Counted from the stretch's first letter, positions 28,941 to 59,610 are shown. The stretch: DNA of 64,000 nucleotides from an uncultured Gammaproteobacteria bacterium (GCA_964404855.1 CAYOLO010000001.1:297322-361321); one strand, 5' to 3'. Notes: generated by a model not told the origin, from the letters alone. Program-made: numbers and translations.

Positions 28941-31900
28941 TTAGTAGGTTCCGGTTAGGATATAGGTGACTTTTGTTTCATAATTACCAGCTTCTTGAGC
29001 AGAACTCACATTGACTTTGTAGGTAACAGTTATTTCACTGTCATTAGTTGTGCCGACATTGGACATAACGGCGACTGGGCTTTCTGCAAAAGCTAAGTCT
29101 GCAAAATGGCGGTAGTTACTGGTAAAGGCTGCATCAGTGCCAGTGACATTGGCTAAAGTGTAACCGAAACCATAAGTGGTGCTTGATGACCAAGCGCCAG
29201 CTGAGGTATGAGTAATATTGCTTGCGTCGCCAAGAACATCAGGGATATAGAATCCGGCGTAGTTAATATTGGCAAGCCTTGTTACTTCTTGAGCGGTTAC
29301 TTGATAGCCGCCTGGGGCATCAGAGACGACTTGTAGATTGTGATTGTTGGTAGCTGGAGTACCTGGAGTAAGAGTACCAAAGGCGATTGTGGTTGAAGAA
29401 ATTGTTAGCTCGAGTCGATTGGAGCCAATATTCCAGTATTGAAAACCAGAACCAAGGTCGTAGTTGGTTGATTCTCCTGGTCCAGCTGCTAGTACGCCAC
29501 CTGTATCTGTAAGTGTGTAATTAGTGGACGATTTTCTGTCGCCGAAACTACCAAATGCTCCATCCATTTCGAAGTTGGTTGAGACTAGTTTGCCTGAACC
29601 AGCAGGTGGTGGGTCAGCGGTGGTGTTGGCAGTGTCACTTCCTGTATCAGTACCATCGTTGGCATCTGTGTAGCTGAGGGTAATAACATCATCTAGGACC
29701 ATTTCGATGTTATTGTTCGAGGTTGTGTATGTTCCCCACGCTGAAGTAATACTGCCTCGGAAAATAGCTGTGGAGTTGCCGGTTTCGGTTAAAGTTTTGG
29801 TTTCGGAATCGCCAGTGGTAGTGGTAATGCTTACAGATAGTGTTTCGGCGCTGCCGCCGTTAAGGTTAACGGAAACATCAGTAACAGTCATATAAATAGT
29901 GTCGCCTTGAGTGAAGTTGTTGTCCTCGGAATATCCGCTGTCTGTTAATAGAATGGTATTTGAGTCGTAGTTGAAGTCGCCAGCGTTGGTCATAAGTCCG
30001 CCGTTATTACATACAGTGCCGGTGACATCAAGAGAGAAGCTGTCTAGATCGTAAGTACCGGTTATGATACAGAAATTTTCGTTGACTGTGGTGTTAACTT
30101 GTTGAGTGAAAGTATCAGTGTTGCCATCGTCAGAGTCGATTGTGAGGTTGCGCCATGTGTAGTTTGGAATATTGTAGACATCAGCAACTGTGTCGTTATC
30201 GCCAACAAAAATTACATAAGATCCGACCGAAAGAGTAGGTGTGGTTGGCAGTTCGTTACCTTCCATTTGTAGTGTATCGGCTACAGTAAATGTTGAACCA
30301 CAGTTGAAGTCAAAGGAGTTGAGGAAGAATGTACCGTCGGTGATTGTACAGGTTGAGCCAGTAGTGAAGTCTGTTGCCATTTGAGCAGTACCTGAGGATT
30401 TGTTGACGGTAAATACGCCTGACATTGTTCCGGCGTTTTGAGTGATGTTTTGGGTTGTGGCTGTACCACCCATGGTAAGTGTAAGATTGGCACCACCAAA
30501 GGTGTCGGTCGTACTCATTGAGAAATCACCTTGGACGGTCATGGTGTAGGCAGATCCTGGGTTTGAAAAAGCTCCGTCTGTGCGCGTGAAGTCATCGGTA
30601 ATTGTACAGGTGCTGGCGAGTGTTAGTGTGGAGCCTGCGTGGGTCATATTTTGTTCAACTGCACCCGTAATTGTGCCGCCTTCACAGTCAAGCGTGGAAT
30701 CAGTGTCTACGCCACCGTCTTCAAAAACCAATGTATTGCCTGCAACAACCAGAGTGCCACCAGAATCTTTAAGCACACTACCTCGAGTCGTAATTGTGGT
30801 TCCAGTCATTGAACCATTAACCGTAATTGAGCCGTATGTCGTGACACTGGCAACCATTGTAATTACACAACTTGCACTTAAGGTAAAGTCAGCTCCTTGA
30901 ATGGTTTTGGCAATATTGTGGGTACCAGCAAGGGTAGTAGAACAAGTAAGAGTAGAATCGTCGGTAGTGTCGGCGCCATCAAAAGTTAAGGTTTTGCCAC
31001 TAAGGTTGAATGTTGTTCCAGATGTATGGGTATAGTCTTTTTCAAGGGTAATTATTGTTCCAGAGTAGGTCATCGTAGCGGAGGCTCCATTGGTAAGACT
31101 ACCTCCATTGCCAGAAGTGGAATCCAGATTAAAAGTACTTCCAGAAATATTAGTTGTACCATTGTTGACATAGTTACCTGTCATTGAGATTGTTGTTACA
31201 GCAACAATACAACTGGTGTTAATTGTGACGGTTGCTCCGCCAGTTTTGTTAAAAGCTAAAGTTCCACCTAGGGTTCCACAGATAACTGTACTGTTGTCAG
31301 AACTACTTGACCCGTCGAGGGTAACAGTAATGCCTGTAAGGTTAAAAGTTCCGCTTTGGGTAAAATCACCCTCAATTGTCATGGCAGTTCCAGAGTAGGT
31401 AATTGTTGCACCACCATTATTGGTTAAATCTCCTTCGCCGCCAGTAAGATTATCGAGATTAAAAGTTGTACCACCATTATTAATCGTGCCGTTATTGATA
31501 ATATTTCCTGTCATCGAGATACCTGAACCTGGGGAGGCAACGGTACATCCGCTACCAATGGTGATGTCACCGTCACCGGTTTTGTTAAAACCAATACTGC
31601 CGCCAATTGTGCCTGAACAGGTGACAGTTGAGTCGTCGGAGGTTGTACTGCCGTCTAATGAAATTGTTCCGCCGTTATGAGTGTATGTGCCGTCATTAGT
31701 GAAGTTTTTGGCTACAGTCATTGCGACAGTTGCAGAATTTTGATAAGTCGCACTGGTGTTAATCAAAAAGTTTCCGTTTACATCGACTGTTGGATCGTTG
31801 GTGTCGGCGTTGACGGTTACTGAGTTAGTGTCATCGCCAATGGTTAAGTTGTTAGCTATGGTTATTGTTTGTGACGCTCCTGAGCCAAGAGTGTATGTGG

Positions 31901-34900
31901 CACTAGCTGCACTTGGTTCGAATGAGAGATTATATAGACTAATTGTGCCTGAACCACCGAAGGTTGGGGTGGCGCTGGCAGCTGTTTTGGCACTAAAGGT
32001 ACCACTAGCGCTTTGGGTAATGGAACCGCTAATTGAGACATCGCCCGAGCCTGCAGTGGTGGAGCCGACGGTGATATTGTTGGTACCAAGAGCAAATGTT
32101 CCAGTTGTGACAGTTAAATCGCCATTGGCTGTAATTGTACCCCCAGCGTTGAATGTTTCAGAAGCGTTAAGGGTTAGATTAGTAAATGTTAGAGTTGGAA
32201 TTGTGGTGTCTCCGGAACCGTTGTTGCCGGTAAATGCAAAGGTCGAAGTGCTACCAGTTAGGGTGGAGGAGGCGTTGACGGCTGTTGGAGTGCCGTCAGT
32301 GCCAGAAAGTGTCCAAGTACGGTTGCCGGCATCAAGAACTGTTGGGGCAGAGTCGCCGCCTTCGCCAAGTGTTAAGTCACCAGTAACATTAATTGCGCCA
32401 GTACCGCCTGTTTGGGTGGTAATTGTTCTTGAGGAGCCTGAGGAATTGGAAAATGTAAGGTTGACGAAATTCCAAGCAGTGGCACCCGAGGTAGCGCCAA
32501 AGTTTTGGGCTGCGGCCACTCTTTGTTTGAATGTACTTGTGCCTGTGTAGTTAATCGTACCGCCACCGGAAATTGCACCATTTACTGTAGTAGTTACCGA
32601 GGTTGAACTGCCAATTGTTCCTGTAACTACAAGCGAATTAGTAACAGTCATTGAAGAAGTTACTGTAGTAGTGAAGGTATTACTGATTGTTAGATTATAA
32701 ATTGCGATTGCACCAGAACCACCGCCAATATTGCCCGTACCGTTCATTGTGACGGTTGGTGTGCCAGCAGTGTTGGCGACTGCGCCAGTTGAAGTAGTTG
32801 TAATGTCACCACCAGCTATTGTCGTGTCGGCGTTAATATTAAGGGTGGCGCCAGCATCTACGAGAATGTCTCTCGACATAGCGTTGGTGGCGCTGCCGAG
32901 CGTGGCTGTAGCGCTGTCGTCGACATGAAAGTCAGCTGTTCCATTAGTCGTAACTGTTCCGTTTGGGGTGTAGGTTTTGCCGGTAAAAACTAATAGCTCT
33001 ATACCACTAGTAACGCTAAGGTTGTTACTCGATACAGTATATGGGATATCGCCATCATTACCGCTATCGTAGGTGTCCATATCGGTATTATCAACAGCTG
33101 TGGCGTCGTCAGATGTTACCGTCACAGTATTGGTATAGACAATATTACCTGTTGAGTTGCCAGAGCCATCAAATCTGATTACTGTTGCTCCGTCTGTGGC
33201 GTCATTATCAATCCAAACGACGATGCCTTCGCCGGCTGCTGGAGCAGAAATGGTCGCGTCAGAAAAAGCACCAGTTGAGTCATTACAGAAGGTTGTGGTG
33301 GTGACGCCGTTGCTGCGGATTGCTACATTGTAAGTTGGAGTGGTGTGATCACAGAGAGCTGGTGCCGAAGAAGTGCCCGCAGTATAGACATTACCTGACA
33401 CAGTGATTGGGTCGGCAGGGATAGACACGCTTGGGTAGGTGCAAGCTGACGAAAGACAGTCCGTAACTCCAGAAGGATTGTAAGTAAATACAGGCGTTAA
33501 TTGGTCGTTATCGTAAGCGCGGAAATAGTAGGTGGTAGCGGCGGCAACATCTTCGGCTTTTAGGGGATAGTCTACTTCCAGTATTGCCGAGGCAGAGTGG
33601 TCCATGTTGGCTCCAGCTGCAGCGTCTTTGTCAGATGTATAAGTGCCGTTTTGGGTTGTACCTGTTAGTGCGCTAGAGCCTACTGCGGTGTTGTCTGAAC
33701 AAGAACCACAGGTTTCTCCGCTAGTAGCGTAGCGCCAGACTGCAGATGTTTCTCCCGTGTCGCCAACATCAGTCCAAGTGCAAGTATCAGGGACGGTTGA
33801 TGGGGTACATCCGGAGGTGTATTGGAGTTTTTTTCTGGCGTCAGTTTGAGCTACGGCACCTCTTTCGTAATATTGCATTCTAAGGCGAATAAATTCTTCT
33901 TTGGCGACACTGCCTGTAGTGTTTTCTGCGGCCACTCCAGAAGATGGCGTGTTATTTGTTTCATCGTTATAGAATCGCCAATTGCGCTGCCAAGGTGTAT
34001 AGATTTTCCAAGTAAACTCATAGCTAAATGCCGAACCTTCGCCTCCGGTAGTACCGTCTGGAGCGGATGCGTTAGGGCAGGCAAGACCGTACATTGAGCC
34101 GTTGACTTCGACATCAGCTTGGGCAGTGCCACCAAAGCTTGAGCCGGTCCAAAGCTGGGCATACATGTCACAGTCAACATCGACAGTAAGCATCATGATG
34201 TCATCGGTATTTTCGTTCGGATAGAGTCTTATCCCTAATGAGTCATCTGATGTGGTAACGCCTGTTCTGGTCTTAGTGCCGTAACTAGAGGTTGGAGTGT
34301 AGGTCATAAAGTTACCGTCAGTTGTGGTACCTCCGTCGTTATAAACGACCAAACCAAGCCCTGATGTGCCACCAGCCTGTTGGCGCTGAAATACCGACGA
34401 AGATTGTTTGGCGTTTAATGTTTCTGTTCCTGTATCTGGACAGTTGGTAGTGTTGACACCGCCACTACACTCTGTCCAGCCGTTTGTGGAGTTGTCTGCC
34501 CGCCAGACGGCATGACTATAGTCGTCACCTGAGGTTCCAGTAGAGACCATAATCCTACTACTAGTCGGGTCGCCGTTTGTTTCTATCCAGAATCCAGCAC
34601 TCGCGTCAGTAAAGGCGTTATTCTCTCCACCCCAGCCTGAGCCAACGGTATAGACTTGATAGTTAACGTTGCTGTTTGTTGTGTGGAGATAGTTGACAAT
34701 GAATGTGTTGCTACTGCCACCACCTTGCCAAGCACCGTCAAAACATTGAGCAACAGTACATCCGGTTAGTCCTGCATCCAGTGCGGCAGAGAGACAGCTG
34801 AATGAACTGCCGTCCCAATAGCAAGCGAAAAGGTCGGAGTTAGTATCGGCAATTAGTACCATAATTCGATTAGATCTTTTGTCAGCGAGACGGCTACCAT

Positions 34901-36611
34901 CACTGATTACGCGAATCCATTGAGGTGTGCCGCCCGTACCTCCTGTGTGGAAGTCGACTTCGTTAGTAGCAGATGGTGATCCTGGAGAGGAGTCTGGTGA
35001 CCAAGCTGAACCATCCCAGAGTGCGTAGTAGAATTTGTCAGTAACACTATCTCCGTAGACAACCATTGCTCGACCGGAGAGTGATTCGTAGGCTATATCA
35101 AAAGCTCTTTCACAAGTGCTGGCGGTTTGAGCAGTATCACAGTCTTGGGTTGGTGTTGTGCCTGGATTGTTCCATTGAGCGGTAAAGTCTCCGTTGGCGT
35201 CACATCCTGTCGTACATGTTTCGACATATAAATCCCCGTTGACTTTGAGAGTGCCGATTATTTCTTCTTCTCTGGTTGGGGAAGTTTCAGCTACAGTCCA
35301 AAGTATAAAGCTAGTACTATTGGCGGCACCGTTAAATTCCGACCCAAAAGTTGAAGTTGAGGTAAAGGTTTTTCCTCTTAGGACGCCGTTAGTAGCTGAG
35401 GTATCGCCGTAAAATAAGTTACCGTTGGCTGTAACAGCGTCAGAGGCGATTTGCCACTCTCTGATTTCGCCAAAATCACCAATGATTAAAGGACCAAGGA
35501 GAAAAAACTCTGGACTGATATCTGGAGCGTCGAAGATATAACTAAGATTAAGTGTTTGCCCAGCAACAAGACTTGCTTGCCAAGTGAGTTTTTTGTCGTC
35601 ACCTTCGGTTGATTCAGTAAATACACCTTGTGATTTAGTGATAATAAAATTACTTGGAACTGTTTCAATAATTGTGCCTGTGTAGTTAGTATTGGCGGTA
35701 ATTTGCAGACTGACTTTGTAGTTAGCAGGAGGATAGATACGAGATGGGCCGGAACGTTTAATGATAAATGGATTATTTCCATTTACTTCGAAGAAGTCAT
35801 TAATTGTTCTGGTACCGTTTTTTGTTTCTGCCGAGTATTTGATGGTGTATGTGCCTATTTCGTCGCCGATTTGATATTCAGAAGAGTAGTCTGGGATATC
35901 AGTGATGTTATCAAGTCCACATTCACCGCTGGGGTTAATTTGACCATCTTTGGACGAGAGAATGCTGGTGTTTTTGGAAGGAGTAGTTATTTCGACAGTT
36001 AATTTGGCATCACAAATCGTGTGTCCTAAGTCGTCGACAGTTCCAAAGGATAGTTTGGCTAAATCATTAGGAGAGTAAATAGTTTGGTCGAAGTTAATTG
36101 CTAATACTCCCCATGTGAAATCTTGTTTAATATTTTTGATTTGCCCGTTTTTTTCTATTTCAACATCAAGTGTATATTTTCCTGGAGTAAATGAGCTTGC
36201 AGTGATTGTGTTGGTGTGAATATTGAATTCATTGGAGTTTTGTTTGATTGAAGTACCAATATTCTTAGCAATATTTCCATCAGGTTTTAAAATTTGAGCC
36301 TTAATATTATTGGAGGATAGAATTTGGGTCTCGTTGAGTTTGAGTTTGAATGTAGGGGACTCATCGACTCTAAAAGAGTTTTTTGGAAGTTCGACTACTG
36401 CTTTTGGATAAATTTCTGATTTGGGTAATGATTTAAAAACTAGAACAGTGCTTGCAATGATAATTAAGACAAAAATAAAAGCAAAAACAGTTTTAGAGTG
36501 GTCGGTTATTTTTTTGACCCTGCTAGTGGTGGAAAGTATTAGGTGGGCTTGAGGCTGAAGGGTAAAATTTTTTCTACGAAAAGGGTAGAAGTTTGGCAGG
36601 ATAGTTTTCAC
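28941..36611 (-). CDS. giant (2556 aa) N-terminally anchored surface protein: beta-helix/adhesin-like Thr/Gly/Ser/Asn-rich repeats, and a C-terminal domain homologous to the three small paralogues
   Basis: N-terminal signal-anchor FAFIFVLIIIASTVLVF. Long G/T/S/N-rich repeats. The C-terminus ...AGAWSSSTTYGFGYT...AQEAGNYETKVTYILTGTY resembles the paralogues' ...TTWSTPTSGGHFGFTST...TQPAGTYTNTLTYTSYGIF. Confidence 0.75.
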   Translation of the reverse strand: MKTILPNFYPFRRKNFTLQPQAHLILSTTSRVKKITDHSKTVFAFIFVLIIIASTVLVFKSLPKSEIYPKAVVELPKNSFRVDESPTFKLKLNETQILSSNNIKAQILKPDGNIAKNIGTSIKQNSNEFNIHTNTITASSFTPGKYTLDVEIEKNGQIKNIKQDFTWGVLAINFDQTIYSPNDLAKLSFGTVDDLGHTICDAKLTVEITTPSKNTSILSSKDGQINPSGECGLDNITDIPDYSSEYQIGDEIGTYTIKYSAETKNGTRTINDFFEVNGNNPFIIKRSGPSRIYPPANYKVSLQITANTNYTGTIIETVPSNFIITKSQGVFTESTEGDDKKLTWQASLVAGQTLNLSYIFDAPDISPEFFLLGPLIIGDFGEIREWQIASDAVTANGNLFYGDTSATNGVLRGKTFTSTSTFGSEFNGAANSTSFILWTVAETSPTREEEIIGTLKVNGDLYVETCTTGCDANGDFTAQWNNPGTTPTQDCDTAQTASTCERAFDIAYESLSGRAMVVYGDSVTDKFYYALWDGSAWSPDSSPGSPSATNEVDFHTGGTGGTPQWIRVISDGSRLADKRSNRIMVLIADTNSDLFACYWDGSSFSCLSAALDAGLTGCTVAQCFDGAWQGGGSSNTFIVNYLHTTNSNVNYQVYTVGSGWGGENNAFTDASAGFWIETNGDPTSSRIMVSTGTSGDDYSHAVWRADNSTNGWTECSGGVNTTNCPDTGTETLNAKQSSSVFQRQQAGGTSGLGLVVYNDGGTTTDGNFMTYTPTSSYGTKTRTGVTTSDDSLGIRLYPNENTDDIMMLTVDVDCDMYAQLWTGSSFGGTAQADVEVNGSMYGLACPNASAPDGTTGGEGSAFSYEFTWKIYTPWQRNWRFYNDETNNTPSSGVAAENTTGSVAKEEFIRLRMQYYERGAVAQTDARKKLQYTSGCTPSTVPDTCTWTDVGDTGETSAVWRYATSGETCGSCSDNTAVGSSALTGTTQNGTYTSDKDAAAGANMDHSASAILEVDYPLKAEDVAAATTYYFRAYDNDQLTPVFTYNPSGVTDCLSSACTYPSVSIPADPITVSGNVYTAGTSSAPALCDHTTPTYNVAIRSNGVTTTTFCNDSTGAFSDATISAPAAGEGIVVWIDNDATDGATVIRFDGSGNSTGNIVYTNTVTVTSDDATAVDNTDMDTYDSGNDGDIPYTVSSNNLSVTSGIELLVFTGKTYTPNGTVTTNGTADFHVDDSATATLGSATNAMSRDILVDAGATLNINADTTIAGGDITTTSTGAVANTAGTPTVTMNGTGNIGGGSGAIAIYNLTISNTFTTTVTSSMTVTNSLVVTGTIGSSTSVTTTVNGAISGGGTINYTGTSTFKQRVAAAQNFGATSGATAWNFVNLTFSNSSGSSRTITTQTGGTGAINVTGDLTLGEGGDSAPTVLDAGNRTWTLSGTDGTPTAVNASSTLTGSTSTFAFTGNNGSGDTTIPTLTFTNLTLNASETFNAGGTITANGDLTVTTGTFALGTNNITVGSTTAGSGDVSISGSITQSASGTFSAKTAASATPTFGGSGTISLYNLSFEPSAASATYTLGSGASQTITIANNLTIGDDTNSVTVNADTNDPTVDVNGNFLINTSATYQNSATVAMTVAKNFTNDGTYTHNGGTISLDGSTTSDDSTVTCSGTIGGSIGFNKTGDGDITIGSGCTVASPGSGISMTGNIINNGTINNGGTTFNLDNLTGGEGDLTNNGGATITYSGTAMTIEGDFTQSGTFNLTGITVTLDGSSSSDNSTVICGTLGGTLAFNKTGGATVTINTSCIVAVTTISMTGNYVNNGTTNISGSTFNLDSTSGNGGSLTNGASATMTYSGTIITLEKDYTHTSGTTFNLSGKTLTFDGADTTDDSTLTCSTTLAGTHNIAKTIQGADFTLSASCVITMVASVTTYGSITVNGSMTGTTITTRGSVLKDSGGTLVVAGNTLVFEDGGVDTDSTLDCEGGTITGAVEQNMTHAGSTLTLASTCTITDDFTRTDGAFSNPGSAYTMTVQGDFSMSTTDTFGGANLTLTMGGTATTQNITQNAGTMSGVFTVNKSSGTAQMATDFTTGSTCTITDGTFFLNSFDFNCGSTFTVADTLQMEGNELPTTPTLSVGSYVIFVGDNDTVADVYNIPNYTWRNLTIDSDDGNTDTFTQQVNTTVNENFCIITGTYDLDSFSLDVTGTVCNNGGLMTNAGDFNYDSNTILLTDSGYSEDNNFTQGDTIYMTVTDVSVNLNGGSAETLSVSITTTTGDSETKTLTETGNSTAIFRGSITSAWGTYTTSNNNIEMVLDDVITLSYTDANDGTDTGSDTANTTADPPPAGSGKLVSTNFEMDGAFGSFGDRKSSTNYTLTDTGGVLAAGPGESTNYDLGSGFQYWNIGSNRLELTISSTTIAFGTLTPGTPATNNHNLQVVSDAPGGYQVTAQEVTRLANINYAGFYIPDVLGDASNITHTSAGAWSSSTTYGFGYTLANVTGTDAAFTSNYRHFADLAFAESPVAVMSNVGTTNDSEITVTYKVNVSSAQEAGNYETKVTYILTGTY

Positions 36612-49726: not shown

Positions 49727-52622
<2,896 letters not shown>

Positions 52623-52836
52623 GAGTTTTCTTGTTTTTTAAAACAAGATATTTCCAGTCTTTTTTATTCGCAAAAAGAATTTTTCGTTCTTAAGTGTTTA
52701 AAAGGCAAATTAAGTTTTGTGATAAATTTCTTATCTTTAACAATTTATTGTTAAAGGCAGAAATGATTTGCGAAGCAAACATTTCTATTCAGTTTTTAGG
52801 TGTTCAAGCTTTTTTTGTGCTTGAAAGATTACTATT

Positions 52837-53217
52837 ATGGCAAAACCAGAGAGTAAAATATTCGATTTTGATTTAGGTGGTTATTTTGATTTTGGTGCGC
52901 CTGAAATTAAGGGAGAGTTTTCTGAAGATGAGGTTGATTTTTTAGGTGCAGTCTTAAGAGATAGAGTAATGGTTAGAATGCTTGCGAAAAGGGGAATTAA
53001 TGTCCGAGCTGTTTTGAGATACATGCTAAGTGAAGAAGAAATCGTTGGGTTTCTGGAGTCATCTGTGTCAGAAGATGTTATGGCTGAAGTGGCAAAACAT
53101 CTTGATTTTAGAGTGAATACAGCACTTTTGAATGAAAAAATTGAACCTGAGAGTGCAGAAAGGATATTAGCTTTTCGAAATAGCCGACTGCCAGCGTTTA
53201 CTTTGGACCAGTCTTGA
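52837..53217 (+). CDS. hypothetical small acidic protein encoded in the 23S-5S spacer
   Basis: A 126-aa ORF with protein-like composition (MAKPESKIFDFDLGG...). No recognisable family. It lies entirely between the rRNA genes. Confidence 0.35.
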   Translation: MAKPESKIFDFDLGGYFDFGAPEIKGEFSEDEVDFLGAVLRDRVMVRMLAKRGINVRAVLRYMLSEEEIVGFLESSVSEDVMAEVAKHLDFRVNTALLNEKIEPESAERILAFRNSRLPAFTLDQS

Positions 53218-53243: not shown

Positions 53244-53360
53244 CTCGAACGGTTGTTGAAGCGGTTTGGTCCCACCTGATCCCATCCCGAACTCAGAAGT
53301 GAAACGAGCCAGCGGTGACAATAGTTATTGCGAAAGCGATTATGAAGATAGCTCGCAGCC
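53244..53360 (+). rRNA. rrf: 5S ribosomal RNA
   Basis: Conserved core ggtcccacctgatcccatcccgaactcagaagtgaaacg. The ends are approximate. Confidence 0.6.
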
Positions 53361-54015
53361 GTATTAAGATTTAGCCATCCCTAAAGGATGGCTATTTTTT
53401 TGTTTGCCCTCTAAAGTGCGTATTCAAATGCTTAGAATTACGCCTTGCGCCTTGAGAACACTCAAGGCTAAAAGGAGGGCTTTTTGTTTTTTGTAGCTGC
53501 GTTTTTGCTCAAAAGATAGTTACTCGCTAGAACTCGTCAAAATTCTGGTTCCACCAAATTTTTCCTTGTTCAAGCTACGTCCTGCGAATCAGGATACCTG
53601 ATTCTAATGCTCGCAGCCGTATTAAAATTTGACCATCCCTAAAGGATGGTCATTTTTTTTGTTATATTTTGCCCTCTAAAGTGCGTATTCAAGTGCTTTG
53701 AATTACGCCTTGCGCCTTGAGAACACTCAAGGCTAAAAGGAGAGCTTTTTCTTTATGTACACCATCTAAAATGCTCGCTCAATCGAGCTTGAGCTACGCT
53801 TTGCGCTTCAAGATTAAAAAATATTTTAATCCTCTCGTTGAGAAGGAAACCTAAAGCTAAAAAGATGGTCATTTTTTTGGTTGTTTTCTGATTAAGGATA
53901 GTTACTCGCCAAAATTCCTCCAAAAACTGTCTCCGTCATTTTTGTCATCAGTTTTGGCTACGTCCTGCGTTTTGGGAAACCCAAAACTTAAAAGGAGGGC
54001 TTTTTGTTTGTTTGC
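53336..54015 (+). repeat. degenerate tandem array of ~150-bp modules, each carrying intrinsic-terminator-like hairpins
   Basis: Two near-identical modules at 53336-53490 and 53607-53760 (gctcgcagccgtattaa..ccatccctaaaggatgg+T-run..gccttgagaacactcaaggc..aaaaggagggcttttt), plus two or more partial copies (53795-53880, 53960-54015). The first module includes the 5S 3' end. Confidence 0.75.
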
Positions 54016-54214
54016 GACCTTCGATGAGGTTTTTTTTTATTGTGTGTCGAGTTACTAAGACGAATCTTGAACACTTTATACCACTTCGCGAGTCAATCGA
54101 CAAATACTGGGATAGAAGTAAGTTCAATTACGCCGTTTTTAGCCAGGCAATCCTAGAAACTAACAACCAATTTCAGTATAATGGAATGTACCGATACTAA
54201 GGGAAATATCGAAA

Positions 54215-54469
54215 GTGCGCCACCTGGCGCAAAATAATAAAGATACTATGAACGCAACAAACGACACGCAAAAACCTACACCTGAAAGCACGAACCCTAT
54301 TAAGCAGGTTGTTGATGTGATGAAAAAGGTCGATACCTCTAGCCCAGAGGCAAAGCAGAACGAAGTAAGCATTACCGACAAAAACGGCAAGCGTATAAAA
54401 CTAGACGACGAAGAAGTGAGATTTAATTATTTTAAGGGAACTTTTGAACGAAAAAGCGGCAAAAAATAG
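54215..54469 (+). CDS. hypothetical small protein (element-borne)
   Basis: 84-aa ORF. No recognisable domain. Confidence 0.35.
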   Translation: MRHLAQNNKDTMNATNDTQKPTPESTNPIKQVVDVMKKVDTSSPEAKQNEVSITDKNGKRIKLDDEEVRFNYFKGTFERKSGKK

Positions 54470-54503
54470 TCTATCTTATTAAGCAAGTCCATGTTGAACA
54501 TAT

Positions 54504-55118
54504 ATGTATGCTATTAACGATAACGAATTTATCGAAAAACACGTAACCGATGCACTCTACAAAAAGATAATCGGTGAACTTCGCACGAATCTCGACGGTA
54601 CAAAGAAAAAAGATAAGGGCAGGAAACGAGAACTAACCCGCGAAATACTACGCCAATATCTTTTTAACCTGTCTCTGACTGGCGAGTACGAATTCTCGGC
54701 TGAATCCGCAGGTTTGCCAGAAAAAAGAAGGCAAAAATACATGACTGAATCAGAGTCATTTCGTGGGGTATCTAGCCTGGCGAAGAATAATGTGTCGCTA
54801 CGGTCAAGAATAGCGGTTGCCCAGGCCATAATGGGACGTAGGCCGAGCTACTATAAACTTACTCACCCAATTACGAACCAGCCTACCTACATAGAGTTAA
54901 AAGAAACTCTGCCGAACGTTAATGCGGCTATGTGGTGGCTGGAAAAAGTAGATAAAATTGGCGCAGTGAAAGAAGACGACGACCCATACAAAAATCCCAA
55001 ACTGGGCGCACCACGAAACGAGCATGAAGCTGAATTGTTAGAAGGACTTTTGAAGAGTCACACGGATTACGAGATAGAAAAGTGGCAAAAAGCGCGACAG
55101 GCGCAACAACAAAAATAA
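54504..55118 (+). CDS. hypothetical protein (element-borne)
   Basis: 204-aa ORF of charged composition. No recognisable motif. Confidence 0.45.
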   Translation: MYAINDNEFIEKHVTDALYKKIIGELRTNLDGTKKKDKGRKRELTREILRQYLFNLSLTGEYEFSAESAGLPEKRRQKYMTESESFRGVSSLAKNNVSLRSRIAVAQAIMGRRPSYYKLTHPITNQPTYIELKETLPNVNAAMWWLEKVDKIGAVKEDDDPYKNPKLGAPRNEHEAELLEGLLKSHTDYEIEKWQKARQAQQQK

Positions 55119-55196
55119 AGCAACAATTGGGCCATAGGTCTTGATAATCTTAGATGGGTTTGGTATATTGATTTTGTTAACTCTAGTTAACTTAAT

Positions 55197-56321
55197 ATGA
55201 CCGACAAAGCCACTTTCAATAAAAACATCTACAAAACTACAGGCGACTTGTTAAGTGTAAAAGAAGCCGCTGATTTACTTGGTACTCACCCGAATACAAT
55301 TCGTAGATGGGCAAAGGATGGGAAAATTAAGTCCACCCGTGTGGGTGCGAGAAAAGACAGGAAATTTAATAAAGATGAACTTCTTAAAGAAGCGTTGAAT
55401 GTCAAAGTCGTGGATGGTAAGCAGGAAGCCTACGAAAAATACTACGATTATCTGAAATCTTTATTCAAAAGAACGATTGAAAAGAACCCCGTAGAGTCCT
55501 TGTATAACACCCTTCAAGTTTCTGGTATGCACTATGGACACTGGGACCCGACTTACGAAATTTACGACTTTTTCGATGACTTTAATAAATTACTCGCCGA
55601 GGAAAGCAAAAAAGACCCATCTTCGAAACGTGTCTACCGCATTGGCCTTTTGATGTATGGCCATGCAATAGAGATGGCTCTACCGTGGAACTTACTTGCC
55701 AACGCTCTGAATATATTGAATGGTCGCCCATATAACGTTAGTCCATTCTTAGACCTTATGAGAAGAAAAAAGGGCTCGTTGTACTCGATACCACCATCCA
55801 CAAAACAAAAGATGGTTAGGGTCAAAGAACTCGCTAGAGAAGCTAAAGAAGAAAAGCTAGTAGAGATTATCGACGAATTTTTCAGTGACGCCGTTCGAAA
55901 TAGTTTTTACCATTCCGACTACTGCCTGACCGATACAGAGTTTCGCTTTTCCGATGGCGGAATCGCTTCTTCAAAGCATTTAGAGGAAATTGACCATCTA
56001 ATAAGTCGCTGTTTTGCTTTTTACGAGGCTTTGCTTAACGCTCATTCGTGGACAAGGGCATTTTATAAAGCCGTAAAGCCCTACCACAAATGGCCAAACT
56101 ACGAGGTATTCGAAATACTAAAGAACGATAAAGAAGTTTATGGCTTCAAGGTTCACTTTTCTAATGGCCAGGTAGCAAAGTTCACGCGCGAACCTGAAAA
56201 GGTAGAGGCCATAAATCTACACTTTGACCATGATGGCAGTATCAACTTTTTTGCGGGCAACCTGGACAAACTAACTAAACAGTGGCTTTTAGACGGCAAG
56301 CCGTTTACAGAGAAACAATAA
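55197..56321 (+). CDS. excisionase/MerR-type HTH DNA-binding protein with a large C-terminal domain of unknown function
   Basis: N-terminal LSVKEAADLLGTHPNTIRRWAKDGKIKSTRVG (HTH_17-like). Confidence 0.55.
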   Translation: MTDKATFNKNIYKTTGDLLSVKEAADLLGTHPNTIRRWAKDGKIKSTRVGARKDRKFNKDELLKEALNVKVVDGKQEAYEKYYDYLKSLFKRTIEKNPVESLYNTLQVSGMHYGHWDPTYEIYDFFDDFNKLLAEESKKDPSSKRVYRIGLLMYGHAIEMALPWNLLANALNILNGRPYNVSPFLDLMRRKKGSLYSIPPSTKQKMVRVKELAREAKEEKLVEIIDEFFSDAVRNSFYHSDYCLTDTEFRFSDGGIASSKHLEEIDHLISRCFAFYEALLNAHSWTRAFYKAVKPYHKWPNYEVFEILKNDKEVYGFKVHFSNGQVAKFTREPEKVEAINLHFDHDGSINFFAGNLDKLTKQWLLDGKPFTEKQ

Positions 56322-56326
56322 CATCT

Positions 56327-57214
56327 ATGAGAAACAGAATTAAGTATTCCCAAAATTTCCTTAAAAGCAGTGATTTAATCGAAAGCCTTTTAGAAAAATC
56401 TTCTATTAGCGCGGACGACGTAGTCATAGAAATAGGTGCAGGTGAAGGCATTATTACCCAAGAACTCGCAAAAAAAGCTAAAAAGGTTATCGCTTTTGAA
56501 ATAGATAATAACTTATCCCAAAAACTTAAAGCCAGGTTCCTAGATAAAGGCCTCGTAGAAATTATTAGTCAAGATTTTCTTCAATTTGAACTACCCAAAA
56601 ATGATTACAAAGTGTTTTCAAACATCCCCTTTAATCTTACGGCCAATATAATCAAGAAGCTCGCCTATGCAAACATTCCACCCATAGATAGCTATTTAAT
56701 TATTCAAAAAGAAGCCGCCCAAAAGTTTGCAGGAAAGCCACTTTCGGCCAACAATAGCCTTGTTTCAGTTTTAATTCAGAGTCATTTTGAAGTTTCCATC
56801 TTCCACCAATTTAGAAAAGATGACTTCTTCCCCAGACCAATGGTGGATACTGTAATGATTAGGTTTCAAAAACTGGATGTAGCGAAAATAAAAGCTAATG
56901 AAAAAGATTTATTTTATGACTTTGTTACATTTGGCTTTAACCAGTTCGAGCCAAACATATTTAAGGGCTTATCTAAGGTTATGAACACCAACGCCATAAA
57001 TGAAGTTGCTAACACCAATCGTTTTTCCGTCACAGTTAAACCAAGTCAACTTAATACAAGCGATTGGGTAGCTTTATTTGAAAAGTTCAACTTAGTAGGC
57101 AACAAATCTAAAGTCTTGGGAAATTACAAACGGTTGTTAGGGCAACAAAGTACGTTAGAAAAAGTAAACCGAACCAGGCTAGATAAAAACTGGAAAAATA
57201 GTGCTTCTAACTAG
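56327..57214 (+). CDS. Erm-family 23S rRNA (adenine-N6)-methyltransferase-like protein (KsgA/Erm fold)
   Basis: KYSQNFL, VIEIGAGEGIIT (SAM-binding), FSNIPFNLTANIIKKL, and FFPRPMVDTVMIRF match ErmB/ErmC block for block. The ATG at 56327 sits 5 nt after the upstream stop. Confidence 0.6.
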   Translation: MRNRIKYSQNFLKSSDLIESLLEKSSISADDVVIEIGAGEGIITQELAKKAKKVIAFEIDNNLSQKLKARFLDKGLVEIISQDFLQFELPKNDYKVFSNIPFNLTANIIKKLAYANIPPIDSYLIIQKEAAQKFAGKPLSANNSLVSVLIQSHFEVSIFHQFRKDDFFPRPMVDTVMIRFQKLDVAKIKANEKDLFYDFVTFGFNQFEPNIFKGLSKVMNTNAINEVANTNRFSVTVKPSQLNTSDWVALFEKFNLVGNKSKVLGNYKRLLGQQSTLEKVNRTRLDKNWKNSASN

Positions 57215-57223
57215 AGTAAAACT

Positions 57224-58834
57224 ATGTATGACGAAGAAAACCAAGTCGATATTAAATCGCTAAAATATGTTCTATACGCTCGTAAATCAACCGACGACCC
57301 ACAAAGGCAGTTGCGTTCAATCCCTGACCAAATAGACGAATGTAAAAAGCTAGCCGAACGACTTGAACTAAACGTAGTCGAAGTTTTAGAAGAAAAGAAA
57401 TCAGCAAAAATACCCAGACGAAGACCAGTCTTTGATTCGATGATGGAAGCAATCGGCAAGGGTCAATACGACGCGATACTGGCCTGGCATCCCGACAGAT
57501 TAGCTCGTAACGCCCTTGAAGCTGGCGTCCTAATCGAAATGGTGGACGAAGGAATAATTCAGGACTTAAAATTCGTTACCCACCACTTTAGCCCAGACGC
57601 TAATGGCAAAATGCTTCTGGGAATGGCCTTTGTACTGTCTAAGCAATACAGCGATAAACTTTCCCAGGATGTTACCAGGGGCGTTAGAAGACGCCATAGA
57701 GAAGGTATAACACCTGCCTTTAAGCATGGTTACCTTCGAGACGAAAATGGTATCTATAGACCCGATGGTGAAAAGTTCGACTTAATAAAACAAGGCTGGA
57801 TTATGCGCGCCGATGGAGAATCCTTAGAGGACATCGCGAAATATCTTAATGATAATAATTACTTCCGACTTATTATCGGTGAGAAAAGTAAAAACTATCT
57901 GGGGAAGCAGTACATGACTACCCAGAAGTTAAGTAACATATTCAAAGACCCTTTTTACTTTGGTTTGTTGGTGCAAGTAAAGCAAGAAGTAGATTTATGC
58001 GAAATGCACGAGGATTTCGTGGCAATGGTAAGCCGAGATTTATACGATAAGGTACAAGCGTTGACATTAAATCGGCCAAATCCCTATAAAACCAAGCACC
58101 CAAACTTTTATCCCTTAAAACAAATGATTGATTGCGCCTATTGCGGGGGCAACATGGTCGTAGGCCCGTCTAGTGGTCGTAAAGAAAACTATTTGTATTA
58201 CCGATGCGATACCGCTTCTTGCGCTAGAAATACGCTTGAAAACAAATCTAAACGCCCAAGCGACCCTACAAAAATTAAGGTGTCAATTCGAGCAAAGATA
58301 ATCTTTGACTTTATTTACGACTTCTTGAAGGACGGCCTCGGTTTAACAGAAAAGGAATACAAAGAATACTATCAAGGACTTAAAGCCCTGGGTGATAACG
58401 AGCTTCAAAAGATACGAGCGCAGATAGCAAGCTATCAAGGACAGCGACGCCATTTACAGTCCGAGGTTAGAAGAATTGCCCTTAGCTTGCCAAGAATCAG
58501 AGATGACGAGACGGTTTACCAAATCAATAAAGAAGAACTTGAAAAGGATAAACGCGACCTTAGCCAAGTGGAGACTAATATCGAAAAGTTAAAGGCGAAA
58601 CTTGTTGATAAAGACGATGACGAACTGTCCCTAGAAGAATTCTTGAACATATCAAAAAATGCAGGTAAGAAGGTCAAAGCTGGCGATGCAATCGTAAAAG
58701 ATACAATTTGCCGAATAATCTTCTTGAACATAGCCGTCGACAACGAAAAAGTGACGTCGTATCGGCTAAAAGAACCCTTCGCTACCCTGCTAAAAAGCAG
58801 GTCTTCCCAAAATGGTCGGGGTGGTCGGATTTGA
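57224..58834 (+). CDS. large serine recombinase (resolvase-type catalytic domain + recombinase/zinc-ribbon/coiled-coil C-terminus)
   Basis: YARKSTDDPQRQ...SIPDQ catalytic Ser region, DRLARN, C-terminal CxxC...C cluster (CAYCGG...CDTASC) and coiled-coil. The last 22 nt are tRNA-Pro sequence. Confidence 0.8.
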   Translation: MYDEENQVDIKSLKYVLYARKSTDDPQRQLRSIPDQIDECKKLAERLELNVVEVLEEKKSAKIPRRRPVFDSMMEAIGKGQYDAILAWHPDRLARNALEAGVLIEMVDEGIIQDLKFVTHHFSPDANGKMLLGMAFVLSKQYSDKLSQDVTRGVRRRHREGITPAFKHGYLRDENGIYRPDGEKFDLIKQGWIMRADGESLEDIAKYLNDNNYFRLIIGEKSKNYLGKQYMTTQKLSNIFKDPFYFGLLVQVKQEVDLCEMHEDFVAMVSRDLYDKVQALTLNRPNPYKTKHPNFYPLKQMIDCAYCGGNMVVGPSSGRKENYLYYRCDTASCARNTLENKSKRPSDPTKIKVSIRAKIIFDFIYDFLKDGLGLTEKEYKEYYQGLKALGDNELQKIRAQIASYQGQRRHLQSEVRRIALSLPRIRDDETVYQINKEELEKDKRDLSQVETNIEKLKAKLVDKDDDELSLEEFLNISKNAGKKVKAGDAIVKDTICRIIFLNIAVDNEKVTSYRLKEPFATLLKSRSSQNGRGGRI

Positions 58835-58888
58835 ACCGACGGCCTCGCCGTCCCGAACGACGCGCTCTACCAGCTGAGCTACACCCCG
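58813..58888 (-). tRNA. tRNA-Pro (anticodon CGG), CCA encoded
   Basis: Minus-strand cloverleaf: cggggtg-ta-gctc-agctggta-gagc-g-cgtcg-ttCGGga-cggcg-aggcc-gtcgg-ttcaaat-ccgac-caccccg-a-cca. Confidence 0.8.
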
Positions 58889-59013
58889 TCGTCGAAATGA
58901 GCTACATCGTTGCGAATTGAGACGACATTCAATTATATGTCTCAATTCTTACATTTTTCGCTATTTCTCCTCTCCCCATTTTGTAAACAAAACGGGGGCC
59001 CCGTTTTTTAAGG

Positions 59014-59105
59014 AGACACCAAGGTTTCCCTTCAAAAAACTCTGGGCATAGCCCAGTTTTGTAAACAAAAACGTTTTCTCTTCCTTTCCTGTAAAACAAA
59101 AGCCA
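59014..59105 (+). repeat. ~90-bp repeat element, copy 1 (gacaccaaggtttcccttca...gttttgtaaacaaaaacgttttctcttcctttcct)
   Basis: ~80% identical to copy 2. It begins with the imperfect inverted repeat aaggaga/tcccttc and contains the ctgggcatagcccag hairpin plus a T-run. Confidence 0.7.
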
Positions 59106-59348: not shown

Positions 59349-59367
59349 GCCCTTGTAGCTCAGTGGA
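59349..59367 (+). pseudogene. truncated duplicate of the tRNA-Arg 5' end (19 nt: gcccttgtagctcagtgga)
   Basis: Identical to the first 19 nt of the intact tRNA-Arg 83 bp downstream. Confidence 0.6.
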
Positions 59368-59431
59368 GAAGCTTTTAGGAATCTTTTCCACTTCGTACAA
59401 TTTCTTGATTTATTGAGAAATTTTAAATCAA

Positions 59432-59504
59432 GCCCTTGTAGCTCAGTGGATAGAGCGCGCCCGTCCTAAGGGTGGTGTCGGGAGTTCGATTCTCTCCAAG
59501 GGCA
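59432..59504 (+). tRNA. tRNA-Arg (anticodon CCU)
   Basis: gcccttg-ta-gctc-agtggata-gagc-g-cgccc-gtCCTaa-gggtg-gtgtc-gggag-ttcgatt-ctctc-caagggc-a. Confidence 0.75.
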
Positions 59505-59518
59505 CACATAATTATGTG

Positions 59519-59610
59519 AAGGGACACCAAGGTTTCCCTTCAGAAAGCTCTGAACTTTGCTTCGGTTTTGTAAGAAACAAAAACGCTTTCTCTTCCTTTC
59601 CTATTAGAAG
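59519..59610 (+). repeat. ~90-bp repeat element, copy 2
   Basis: gaaggga(caccaaggtt)tcccttc hairpin ...gttttgtaagaaacaaaaacgctttctcttcctttcct. Confidence 0.7.

Follow-up and report, generated by a model that had tools for sequence, protein, structure and literature searches.

The locus examined here raises the question of what kind of mobile element occupies a proline tRNA gene in a very small bacterial genome, what its integration does to its own integrase gene, and what its cargo might do for the host. The window, meaning the whole 64,000-nucleotide stretch analysed (GCA_964404855.1 CAYOLO010000001.1:297322-361321, deposited as an uncultured Gammaproteobacteria bacterium), contains a block of five same-strand open reading frames (ORFs) next to a tRNA-Pro(CGG) gene. 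In a first-pass annotation, this block had been read as a small integrative element carrying an Erm-like rRNA methyltransferase and a large serine recombinase (LSR). All five ORFs are present (54215-54469, 54504-55118, 55197-56321, 56282/56327-57214 and 57224-58834), and the element interpretation largely holds; what the earlier reading had not seen is that the recombinase gene is split by integration. Taken together, we find it quite probable that the locus is an LSR integrative element at tRNA-Pro, with an LSR gene split by integration and an Erm(42)-like methyltransferase as cargo. The host is a tiny-genome bacterium of the Candidate Phyla Radiation (CPR)/Patescibacteria type and, as judged from the loci aligned here, the element belongs to a large family of CPR/Patescibacteria elements of 3.5-6.4 kb that are inserted by an LSR at the extreme 3' end of tRNA-Pro.

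Ends, target and mobility of the element

Alignment of the copies that carry the identical methyltransferase P0009 (loci L003, L004 and L005) maps both ends, with identity starting at GTCGAGT on the left and stopping within TGGTCGGGG on the right. Comparison of L003, L004 and L006, where the flanks differ, puts the left start at the same core. Specifically, the element spans 54046-58818 of the window (4,769 bp, ~4.77 kb), which moves the left limit inwards from the previously proposed 54010. A search for an attB/attP core dinucleotide recovered a 4-nt core, GTCG, with an inferred GT crossover. The attL core lies at 54046..54049 on the plus strand, with the inferred crossover dinucleotide at 54046-54047, and the attR core lies at 58815..58818 on the plus strand, where it corresponds to discriminator A73, C74 and the first acceptor-stem pair of tRNA-Pro. 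The target itself, tRNA-Pro(CGG), occupies 58813..58888 on the minus strand according to ARAGORN, Rfam (64.4 bits) and the attB reconstruction. At five loci with distinct ends, GTCG is all that the junctions have in common, and long direct repeats are absent. A repeat in the style of tyrosine integrases, which would duplicate the 3' end of the tRNA-Pro gene at the left boundary, was considered and rejected: no such copy was found, and the sequence repeated at the junctions amounts to only 4 nt.

Reconstruction of attP yields an imperfect inverted repeat with GTCTT...AAGAC arms centred on GT. Dyad symmetry holds at 10-13 of 24 positions around GT in 6/6 loci compared, whereas other centres give 2-10, mostly 3-8. 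This is the appearance expected of a serine-integrase site. The putative crossover position maps to discriminator A73/C74; the tRNA stays intact, and its encoded CCA end is supplied by the element. In attB, the left half is not conserved, and the right half consists of the acceptor and T arm of the tRNA. This make-up of attB could account for the tandem arrays, where the attR of one element has received a second. Such arrays, formed by two different family elements at one tRNA-Pro, were observed in L007 (1-5114) and L120 (7115-15178).

The base composition of the element marks it as foreign. Its GC content at third codon positions is 0.42, compared with 0.325 ± 0.047 in 27 host genes, its AT skew is 0.24 compared with 0.03 ± 0.07, and the strong strand GC skew present in every host gene is missing from it.

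Evidence for mobility comes from the relatives. The methyltransferase-recombinase pair recurs with a minus-strand tRNA-Pro over the recombinase 3' end wherever the sequence reaches far enough, and the isoacceptor differs between loci (ggg in L002 and L005, tgg in L003 and L008, cgg in L054). The identical methyltransferase P0009 is found in three different chromosomal flanks and with two tRNA-Pro isoacceptors. In particular, the elements of the window and of L008 are near-identical (LSR 96-98% identical), and the former lies at tRNA-Pro(cgg) beside rRNA genes, the latter at tRNA-Pro(tgg) between tRNA-Leu and tRNA-Gly. Because near-identical copies occupy tRNA-Pro CGG, GGG and UGG genes in unrelated flanks, the element moves. 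Recurrence (L002, L003, L005, L008 and L054), varying flanks and composition thus strongly support an integrative element at tRNA-Pro, and no relatives were found that share the genes at a place lacking the tRNA-adjacent boundary. The relatives compared for att sites span 4.74-6.4 kb, and the element of L119 measures 3.55 kb.

The recombinase gene and its detached 3' end

The integrated-state LSR (57224..58834, plus strand) has 536 aa and was assigned by Pfam and PHROG matches and by an AlphaFold2 (AF2) model of a homologue. It matches the Pfam domains Resolvase (PF00239, 77 bits, residues 16-161), Recombinase (PF07508) and Zn_ribbon_recom (PF13408) as well as a PHROG integrase family (208 bits), and four cysteines are invariant in the recombinase alignment. 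The AF2 model of homologue P0124 contains catalytic, recombinase and zinc-ribbon/coiled-coil domains, with long helices at 371-454. The YARKST catalytic region, zinc ribbon and coiled coil described earlier are therefore all borne out, by the Pfam matches, the translation and the P0124 model. Also as described, the ORF, which ends at 58834 including its stop, overlaps the minus-strand tRNA-Pro(cgg) 3' end by exactly 22 nt. The stretch past the core, 58819-58834, consists of 13 coding nt and a TGA stop, all antisense tRNA-Pro sequence.

The LSR gene spans attP. Joining 58818 to 54050 keeps the reading frame and lengthens the protein from 536 to 581 aa. The detached 3' end, 50 codons plus a stop (RVTKTNLEHFIPLRESIDKYWDRSKFNYAVFSQAILETNNQFQYNGMYRY), lies at 54048..54200 on the plus strand and comes into frame with the LSR only when excision to a circle joins the two ends at attP. 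In six elements compared, this tail always has 50 codons and the same stop, and the ratio of nonsynonymous to synonymous substitution (dN/dS) is 0.03-0.20 in 14 of 15 pairwise comparisons (those in which dS could be estimated). Homologous C-terminal tails, contiguous with the rest of the protein, occur in P0124, P0170, P0182, P0187 and P0228, with the common motif LE..PL...I...W...Y.Y, and LSRs only ~50% identical have a tail of 44-52 residues bearing this motif. About 115 of the closest 120 homologues (46-98% identity) end within a few residues past conserved (S/G)R-G codons, some of them continuing through antisense tRNA (for example GDRTRTCGLTLPKRAL), and 5 of the 120 have a contiguous tail. 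The split architecture is thus widespread, with more than 100 homologues in the truncated layout. The same arrangement of left-end tail segment, truncated recombinase and right-end tRNA-Pro also occurs with unrelated cargo (L119, L120 and L007). Fixed length under selection, homology, a shared truncation point and recurrence with other cargo together show that the tail segment is real coding sequence.

Since the tail has no conserved in-frame start and its upstream flank varies between copies, its translation from the integrated element is not possible. The excised circle and the tandem array are the only forms from which it can be translated. The latter case is seen in P0124 and P0170, the two contiguous-tail contigs inspected, in which the first recombinase of a tandem array is completed by the left-end tail segment of the element that follows. 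In the AF2 model of P0124, the tail begins past the last zinc-ribbon elements, so that the integrated-state LSR keeps every canonical domain and loses only the extension.

Two candidates for related arrangements were discarded. Recombinase-cluster members of 572 aa, considered as circular forms, result from read-through into a tRNA that has no in-frame stop, and a long detached tail is not present in the tRNA-Asn-associated recombinase lineage described below.

We propose that the excised circle would express the full-length 581-aa LSR, which would carry out attP x attB integration. Integration would then remove the 50-residue tail, leaving the last LSR residues tRNA-encoded, and the tail-less LSR would be the sole form available for excision. 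By elimination, the full-length protein would be the integrating form and the tail-less protein the excising form. Excision may be aided by a directionality factor, such as the excisionase-like HTH_17 protein or another small protein of the element. Pfam, NCBIfam and PHROG scans recognised no recombination directionality factor, a class of proteins that has no universal signature, and the HTH_17 protein and the 84-aa ORF may be candidates.

What the tail does can only be put forward as conjecture, whether it concerns activity, stability or direction. One idea is a built-in directionality switch, in which the same gene, once integrated, would yield an enzyme that is competent for excision or regulated differently; we consider this speculative and rather unlikely. 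A split devoid of function, with attP merely falling close to the gene's 3' end and a tail that is dispensable, appears doubtful but somewhat easier to entertain. It would fit the position of the tail beyond all canonical LSR domains, its low-confidence, possibly disordered model, and the second LSR lineage at tRNA-Asn, which also accompanies a methyltransferase and has no long tail, but it sits poorly with the strong purifying selection in the junction-spanning frame, with the length fixed at 50 codons in the sub-lineage of the window, and with the motif kept in the ~50% identical LSRs. Three observations weigh against the proposed split gene that acts from an excised circle. The inspected contiguous-tail LSRs (P0124 and P0170) come from tandem arrays, not circles; the tail is modelled with low confidence (predicted local distance difference test below 50, with five sequences covering it); and specific and degenerate attP junction patterns gave 0 matches in JGI metagenome contigs and IMG/VR, an empty tRNA-Pro site not having been searched for.

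A literature search found no serine integrase gene spanning attP; subscription literature was incompletely covered, so this is no proof of novelty. On the other hand, reading into a tRNA 3' end is not unique to this recombinase family, since two IMG/VR predicted viral contigs (L102 and L103) encode distant serine recombinases (~30% identity) that end inside a minus-strand tRNA-Gly(gcc).

Depending on whether the element is integrated, the gene architecture provides two protein isoforms. Should activity or direction depend on the tail, a new principle of regulation would be added for serine integrases, enzymes in wide use as genome-engineering tools, and if the switch were true, an element of 3.5-5 kb would control direction with no conventional directionality factor, in hundreds of tRNA-Pro-targeting CPR elements. 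The family also offers natural compact integrases with a defined, conserved target, the tRNA-Pro 3' end. For annotation, caution is warranted, as gene callers report integrases of 510-550 aa whose last residues are antisense tRNA.

The methyltransferase cargo

The gene directly upstream of the LSR encodes a probable Erm(42)-like rRNA adenine N6-methyltransferase of 295 aa (56327..57214, plus strand), assigned by Pfam, NCBIfam, BLASTP and a tree. The ATG at 56327 is the most likely start and replaces the GTG at 56282, because the 120 listed homologues are 281-345 aa long, mostly ~295, and align from residue 16. The translation contains all the motifs reported earlier (KYSQNFL, EIGAGEG, NIPFNLTANIIKK and FFPRPMVD), and it matches Pfam RrnaAD (PF00398) with 157 bits. 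Motif I is EIGAGEG and motif IV is NIPF, the latter also found in Erm(42); KsgA shares the RrnaAD features, so these do not discriminate. A leader or attenuator is absent. Gaps of 5 nt to the gene before it and 9 nt to the recombinase after it make co-transcription of the methyltransferase gene with both neighbours probable.

Distribution of the gene indicates that it is a passenger. A pattern scan specific to the methyltransferase family of the window found relatives in 87 of 185,579 species genomes, ~35 of them in Patescibacteria-type contigs and many in gut Clostridia, many record titles in the scan being clearly unreliable. Among the CPR loci, close methyltransferase relatives (≥73% identity) all have a tRNA-Pro-type recombinase next downstream. 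In L025 (9001-11427), L027, L028 and L030, the gene that immediately follows a methyltransferase of 48-50% identity encodes a serine recombinase of 491-526 aa from a second, distant lineage, and in three of these four loci this recombinase gene ends in tRNA-Asn(gtt). At six further CPR loci, a serine recombinase is found within a few kb of the methyltransferase, and at the others, including the complete 615-kb chromosome of L034, no recombinase was seen in the flanks. No methyltransferase accompanies the family recombinases of L119, L120 and L007 element B, and OLD/UvrD-type genes are found in the element to which P0164 belongs. Because elements of the family exist without it, the methyltransferase is a recurrent cargo, not a core element function.

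Two side observations concern the cargo. OLD-family nuclease and UvrD-helicase genes occur in some elements of the recombinase family (P0164 locus; L001, 7909-9165) and resemble Gabija-type defence cargo. Additionally, the recombinase and the 374-aa gene of L054 are 89-91% identical to those of the window, and the methyltransferase between them is only 77% identical; this mosaic suggests recombination between elements.

The substrate of the enzyme was approached by scoring it against models of Erm and of the housekeeping enzyme KsgA (RsmA). The window protein reaches 210.9 bits on the Erm model NF000499 (cut-off 212) and 171.1 bits on the ksgA model TIGR00755 (cut-off 171). The corresponding values are 255 and 129 bits for Erm(42), 263 and 137 bits for ErmB, and 136 and 299 bits for E. 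coli RsmA, so that the Erm-minus-ksgA gap is +40 bits for the window protein, +126 for the true Erms and -163 for E. coli RsmA. All 13 family members scanned match NF000499 (best E-value 1.1e-71), the CPR relative in L034 reaching 240.5 bits, and family member P0051 is named Erm by NCBI. In a set of 72,556 plasmids, erm(42) gives the best match, with 38.9% identity across 97% of the window protein. BLASTP against Erm(42) gives 178 bits over residues 5-290, which includes a C-terminal extension absent from ordinary Erms and from KsgA. In a neighbour-joining tree that could have placed the family with KsgA/RsmA, it joins Erm(42) and then ErmB and ErmC, with the KsgAs outside at 99% bootstrap; the KsgA references in this tree are two (B. 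subtilis and E. coli), none of them from CPR. The host 23S rRNA has an A2058 equivalent within GACAAAAAGACCCC at 51809-51822.

We therefore consider the Erm assignment reasonably likely on sequence grounds. The Erm-like call of the first-pass annotation stands in as far as it draws on the Erm model, the Erm(42) match, the tree and the sparse, mobile distribution, and its support is less firm than it had seemed owing to the intermediate scores. Three points speak against it. The window protein is intermediate, 1.1 bits under the NCBIfam Erm cut-off and just at that of ksgA. A PDB sequence search is a near tie between ErmC' (97 bits) and B. subtilis KsgA (93 bits). Finally, selected CPR methyltransferases expressed in E. 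coli gave no macrolide resistance, although which ones these were is not established (10.64898/2026.07.13.738296).

A KsgA/RsmA-type enzyme dimethylating 16S A1518/A1519, as a spare or only copy and unconnected with resistance, is the first alternative to weigh, and we hold it to be quite improbable. The marginal TIGR00755 score, which exceeds those of Erm(42) and ErmB, and the PDB result are what it can draw on. It can also point to the fact that neither the 64-kb window nor the fetched loci contain a second RrnaAD gene that could be a housekeeping ksgA, an observation that is uninformative for the whole genome. Yet the score on the Erm model is 40 bits higher, the 39% identity to Erm(42) runs over the full length and takes in the extension that KsgA lacks, and the tree places the protein on the Erm side. 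Moreover, a mobile element at varying loci and a family that the family-specific pattern scan found in only 87 species genomes are unlike a near-universal single-copy gene in a stable context.

The second alternative, a DNA N6-adenine methyltransferase acting as an orphan anti-restriction or defence modification half and paired with a helix-turn-helix (HTH) protein like Mad1/Mad2 of MADS, seems very unlikely to us. Mad2 methylates DNA (10.1101/2023.03.30.534895), and the catalytic domain of the window protein matches mad2 in PADLOC (E 1.7e-19, 68 bits), the neighbouring HTH matches mad1 (E 9.5e-7), and other elements of the LSR family carry defence-type cargo in the form of the OLD/UvrD-like genes. 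The Erm(42) match is, however, far stronger (178 bits) and covers both domains, the N-terminal 270 residues of Mad2 are absent from the window protein, and the HTH_17 match is generic. The definition of MADS makes mad6, mad7 and mad8 mandatory (10.1101/2023.03.30.534895); the PADLOC scan found none of mad3-mad8 and gave only weak mad1 and mad2 matches, which leaves the locus outside that system.

Returning to the Erm reading, the cargo enzyme would most likely methylate N6 of 23S A2058 and thereby protect the host ribosome against macrolides, lincosamides and streptogramin B. As a separate observation on this site, comparison of the host GACAAAAAGACCCC with the E. coli GACGGAAAGACCCC reveals that the equivalents of G2056 and G2057, beside the macrolide-site A2058, are A.

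Surveys have reported thousands of 'erm' matches in CPR genomes (PMC8651080; 10.64898/2026.07.13.738296). The 2026 preprint makes no mention of KsgA, recombinases or mobile elements (10.64898/2026.07.13.738296), and the 2021 survey never uses the word 'mobile' (PMC8651080). The present locus adds an Erm(42)-like gene riding small serine-recombinase elements of at least two recombinase lineages, at tRNA-Pro and tRNA-Asn. It offers a concrete route for the spread of a ribosome-protection gene among ultra-small bacteria, and a hint that macrolide-type compounds matter in CPR niches. An origin of Erm(42) in the CPR family was considered and rejected, since gut Clostridia proteins are closer to it (47% vs 39% identity). 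Gut and rumen Clostridia metagenome-assembled genomes (L062-L091) and L013 encode a nearly invariant methyltransferase, 47% identical to Erm(42), that groups with it at 100% bootstrap, scores 267 bits on the Erm(42) model and is closer than any CPR protein; these sequences may point to the source of erm(42).

Other genes, surroundings and known systems

In the sub-lineage of the window, the backbone runs in the order tail, 84-aa ORF, 204-aa ORF, variable HTH_17 gene, methyltransferase and recombinase. Inside the tail-coding region and upstream of the 84-aa ORF, a consensus scan alone picks out a promoter-like site (TAGAAA-17-TATAAT, 10/12; 54154..54182, plus strand). Its TATAAT is invariant in relatives, and the total number of such sites is not above the shuffled expectation. 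The 84-aa ORF (54215..54469, plus strand) is conserved at 60-98% identity in L001-L003, L008, L054 and L096 and has no Pfam, NCBIfam, PHROG or PADLOC match. The 204-aa protein (54504..55118, plus strand) is the most conserved gene product of the element, and its predicted fold finds its best matches among small terminases, with weak similarity. Sequence searches of Pfam, NCBIfam, PHROGs, PADLOC and the PDB returned nothing significant for this protein, the 84-aa protein or the tail. The 374-aa protein (55197..56321, plus strand) has an N-terminal DNA-binding domain of the HTH_17/excisionase family at residues 18-63 (Pfam HTH_17, 45 bits; TIGR01764 excise, 43 bits) and also matches PHROG excisionase families, and its C-terminal 300 aa received no assignment. 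Relatives have a 60-aa HTH_17 gene in its place. From this domain, the 374-aa protein is a candidate regulator or directionality factor.

One possible role of the small-terminase-like protein is to bind the DNA of the element so that it can be packaged or transferred, which leads to the idea of a phage satellite of the phage-inducible chromosomal island (PICI) type, in which the LSR integrates, the small-terminase-like protein redirects helper packaging to the 4.8-kb element, and the methyltransferase is accessory. This idea is compatible with the integrative element proposed above and would change its transfer route, but we judge it unlikely. It rests on the conservation and fold matches of the 204-aa protein, on the joint presence of an integrase and an excisionase-like HTH, and on the distant LSRs ending in tRNA genes in IMG/VR viral contigs. 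Against this stand the weakness of the fold similarity and the missing sequence-level PHROG match, while Pfam, NCBIfam and PHROG recognised no replication/primase gene, capsid-remodelling gene or helper-responsive repressor. Additionally, the elements of L119, L120 and L007 (element B) do not have the 204-aa gene, and no close relative was found in viral contigs.

The integrative element lies between a 23S rRNA (49729-52624) and 5S rRNA (53248-53364) gene on its left and tRNA-Arg(cct) (59432-59505) on its right. No 16S rRNA gene is found upstream (1-49728) of the tRNA-Ala(tgc)-23S-5S unit or elsewhere in the window, so the rRNA genes appear unlinked. The 23S-5S spacer is unusually long (623 bp) and holds a 126-aa ORF (52837-53217) that matches nothing in Pfam, NCBIfam or PHROG. 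Immediately past the 5S gene, ~2.5 tandem copies of a ~260-bp unit (53351-54012), each with the last 14 nt of the 5S gene and terminator-like hairpins (53372-53394 and 53630-53652), stop ~35 bp before the left junction of the element. On the other side, a 19-nt copy of the tRNA-Arg(cct) 5' end (59349-59372) lies 83 bp upstream of the real gene, and ~90-bp repeats (59004-59090 and 59512-59602) flank tRNA-Pro and tRNA-Arg; the copy and the repeats could have been left behind by other integration events. Strand GC skew is strong and one-sided across the whole window, which also contains two very large minus-strand ORFs (28941-36611, 2,556 aa; 17092-22512, 1,806 aa).

Among known systems, Erm(42), a 23S A2058 N6-monomethyltransferase of Pasteurellaceae integrative and conjugative elements and enterobacterial plasmids, is the closest counterpart of the cargo. 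The window protein is 39% identical to it over residues 5-290 and shares the NIPF variant of motif IV and a ~45-residue C-terminal extension (SYKRMLEHESSLEKIHRNR vs NYKRLLGQQSTLEKVNRTR). It differs in reaching 178.8 bits over the whole Erm(42) model NF000077, with its cut-off of 600, and in its higher ksgA score (171 vs 129), and the nearest relatives of Erm(42) here are the gut Clostridia proteins (47%) rather than the CPR family. With the small terminases of PICIs and Staphylococcus aureus pathogenicity islands (SaPIs), the locus has in common a small integrative element with integrase, excisionase-like HTH and small-terminase-like protein; the resemblance is weak and at the fold level only, further hallmarks of a satellite are lacking, and described PICIs are much larger.

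The LSR resembles those of Tn4451/Tn4453 (TnpX), Tn5397 (TndX), SCCmec (CcrAB), streptococcal integrative and mobilizable elements and the phages phiC31, Bxb1, A118 and SPbeta in its resolvase and recombinase domains and in a zinc ribbon with embedded coiled coil. Short att sites with a central non-palindromic dinucleotide and an accessory resistance-type gene are further likenesses. Unlike these systems, it targets the discriminator/CCA end of tRNA-Pro, a tRNA 3'-end target being more usual for tyrosine integrases, its integrase ORF crosses attP so that integration swaps the C-terminus, and it combines a CPR host with no separately recognisable directionality factor. The Tn4451 circular form creates a promoter for tnpX, whereas the circle of the present element would restore a coding tail. 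For the SSV1-type archaeal integrase, a tyrosine recombinase, integration partitions the gene and leaves two pieces without function. In mycobacteriophage integration-dependent immunity, which likewise involves tyrosine recombinases, attP lies inside the repressor gene, and the repressor, not the integrase, is truncated. Both resemble the present case in having an att site within coding sequence and different products from the integrated and free states; in distinction to them, the serine recombinase described here keeps all canonical domains, a C-terminal extension being its sole loss. Three features distinguish this element from known minimal serine-recombinase elements: a CPR host, a target at the tRNA-Pro 3' end and a conserved recombinase tail that integration detaches.

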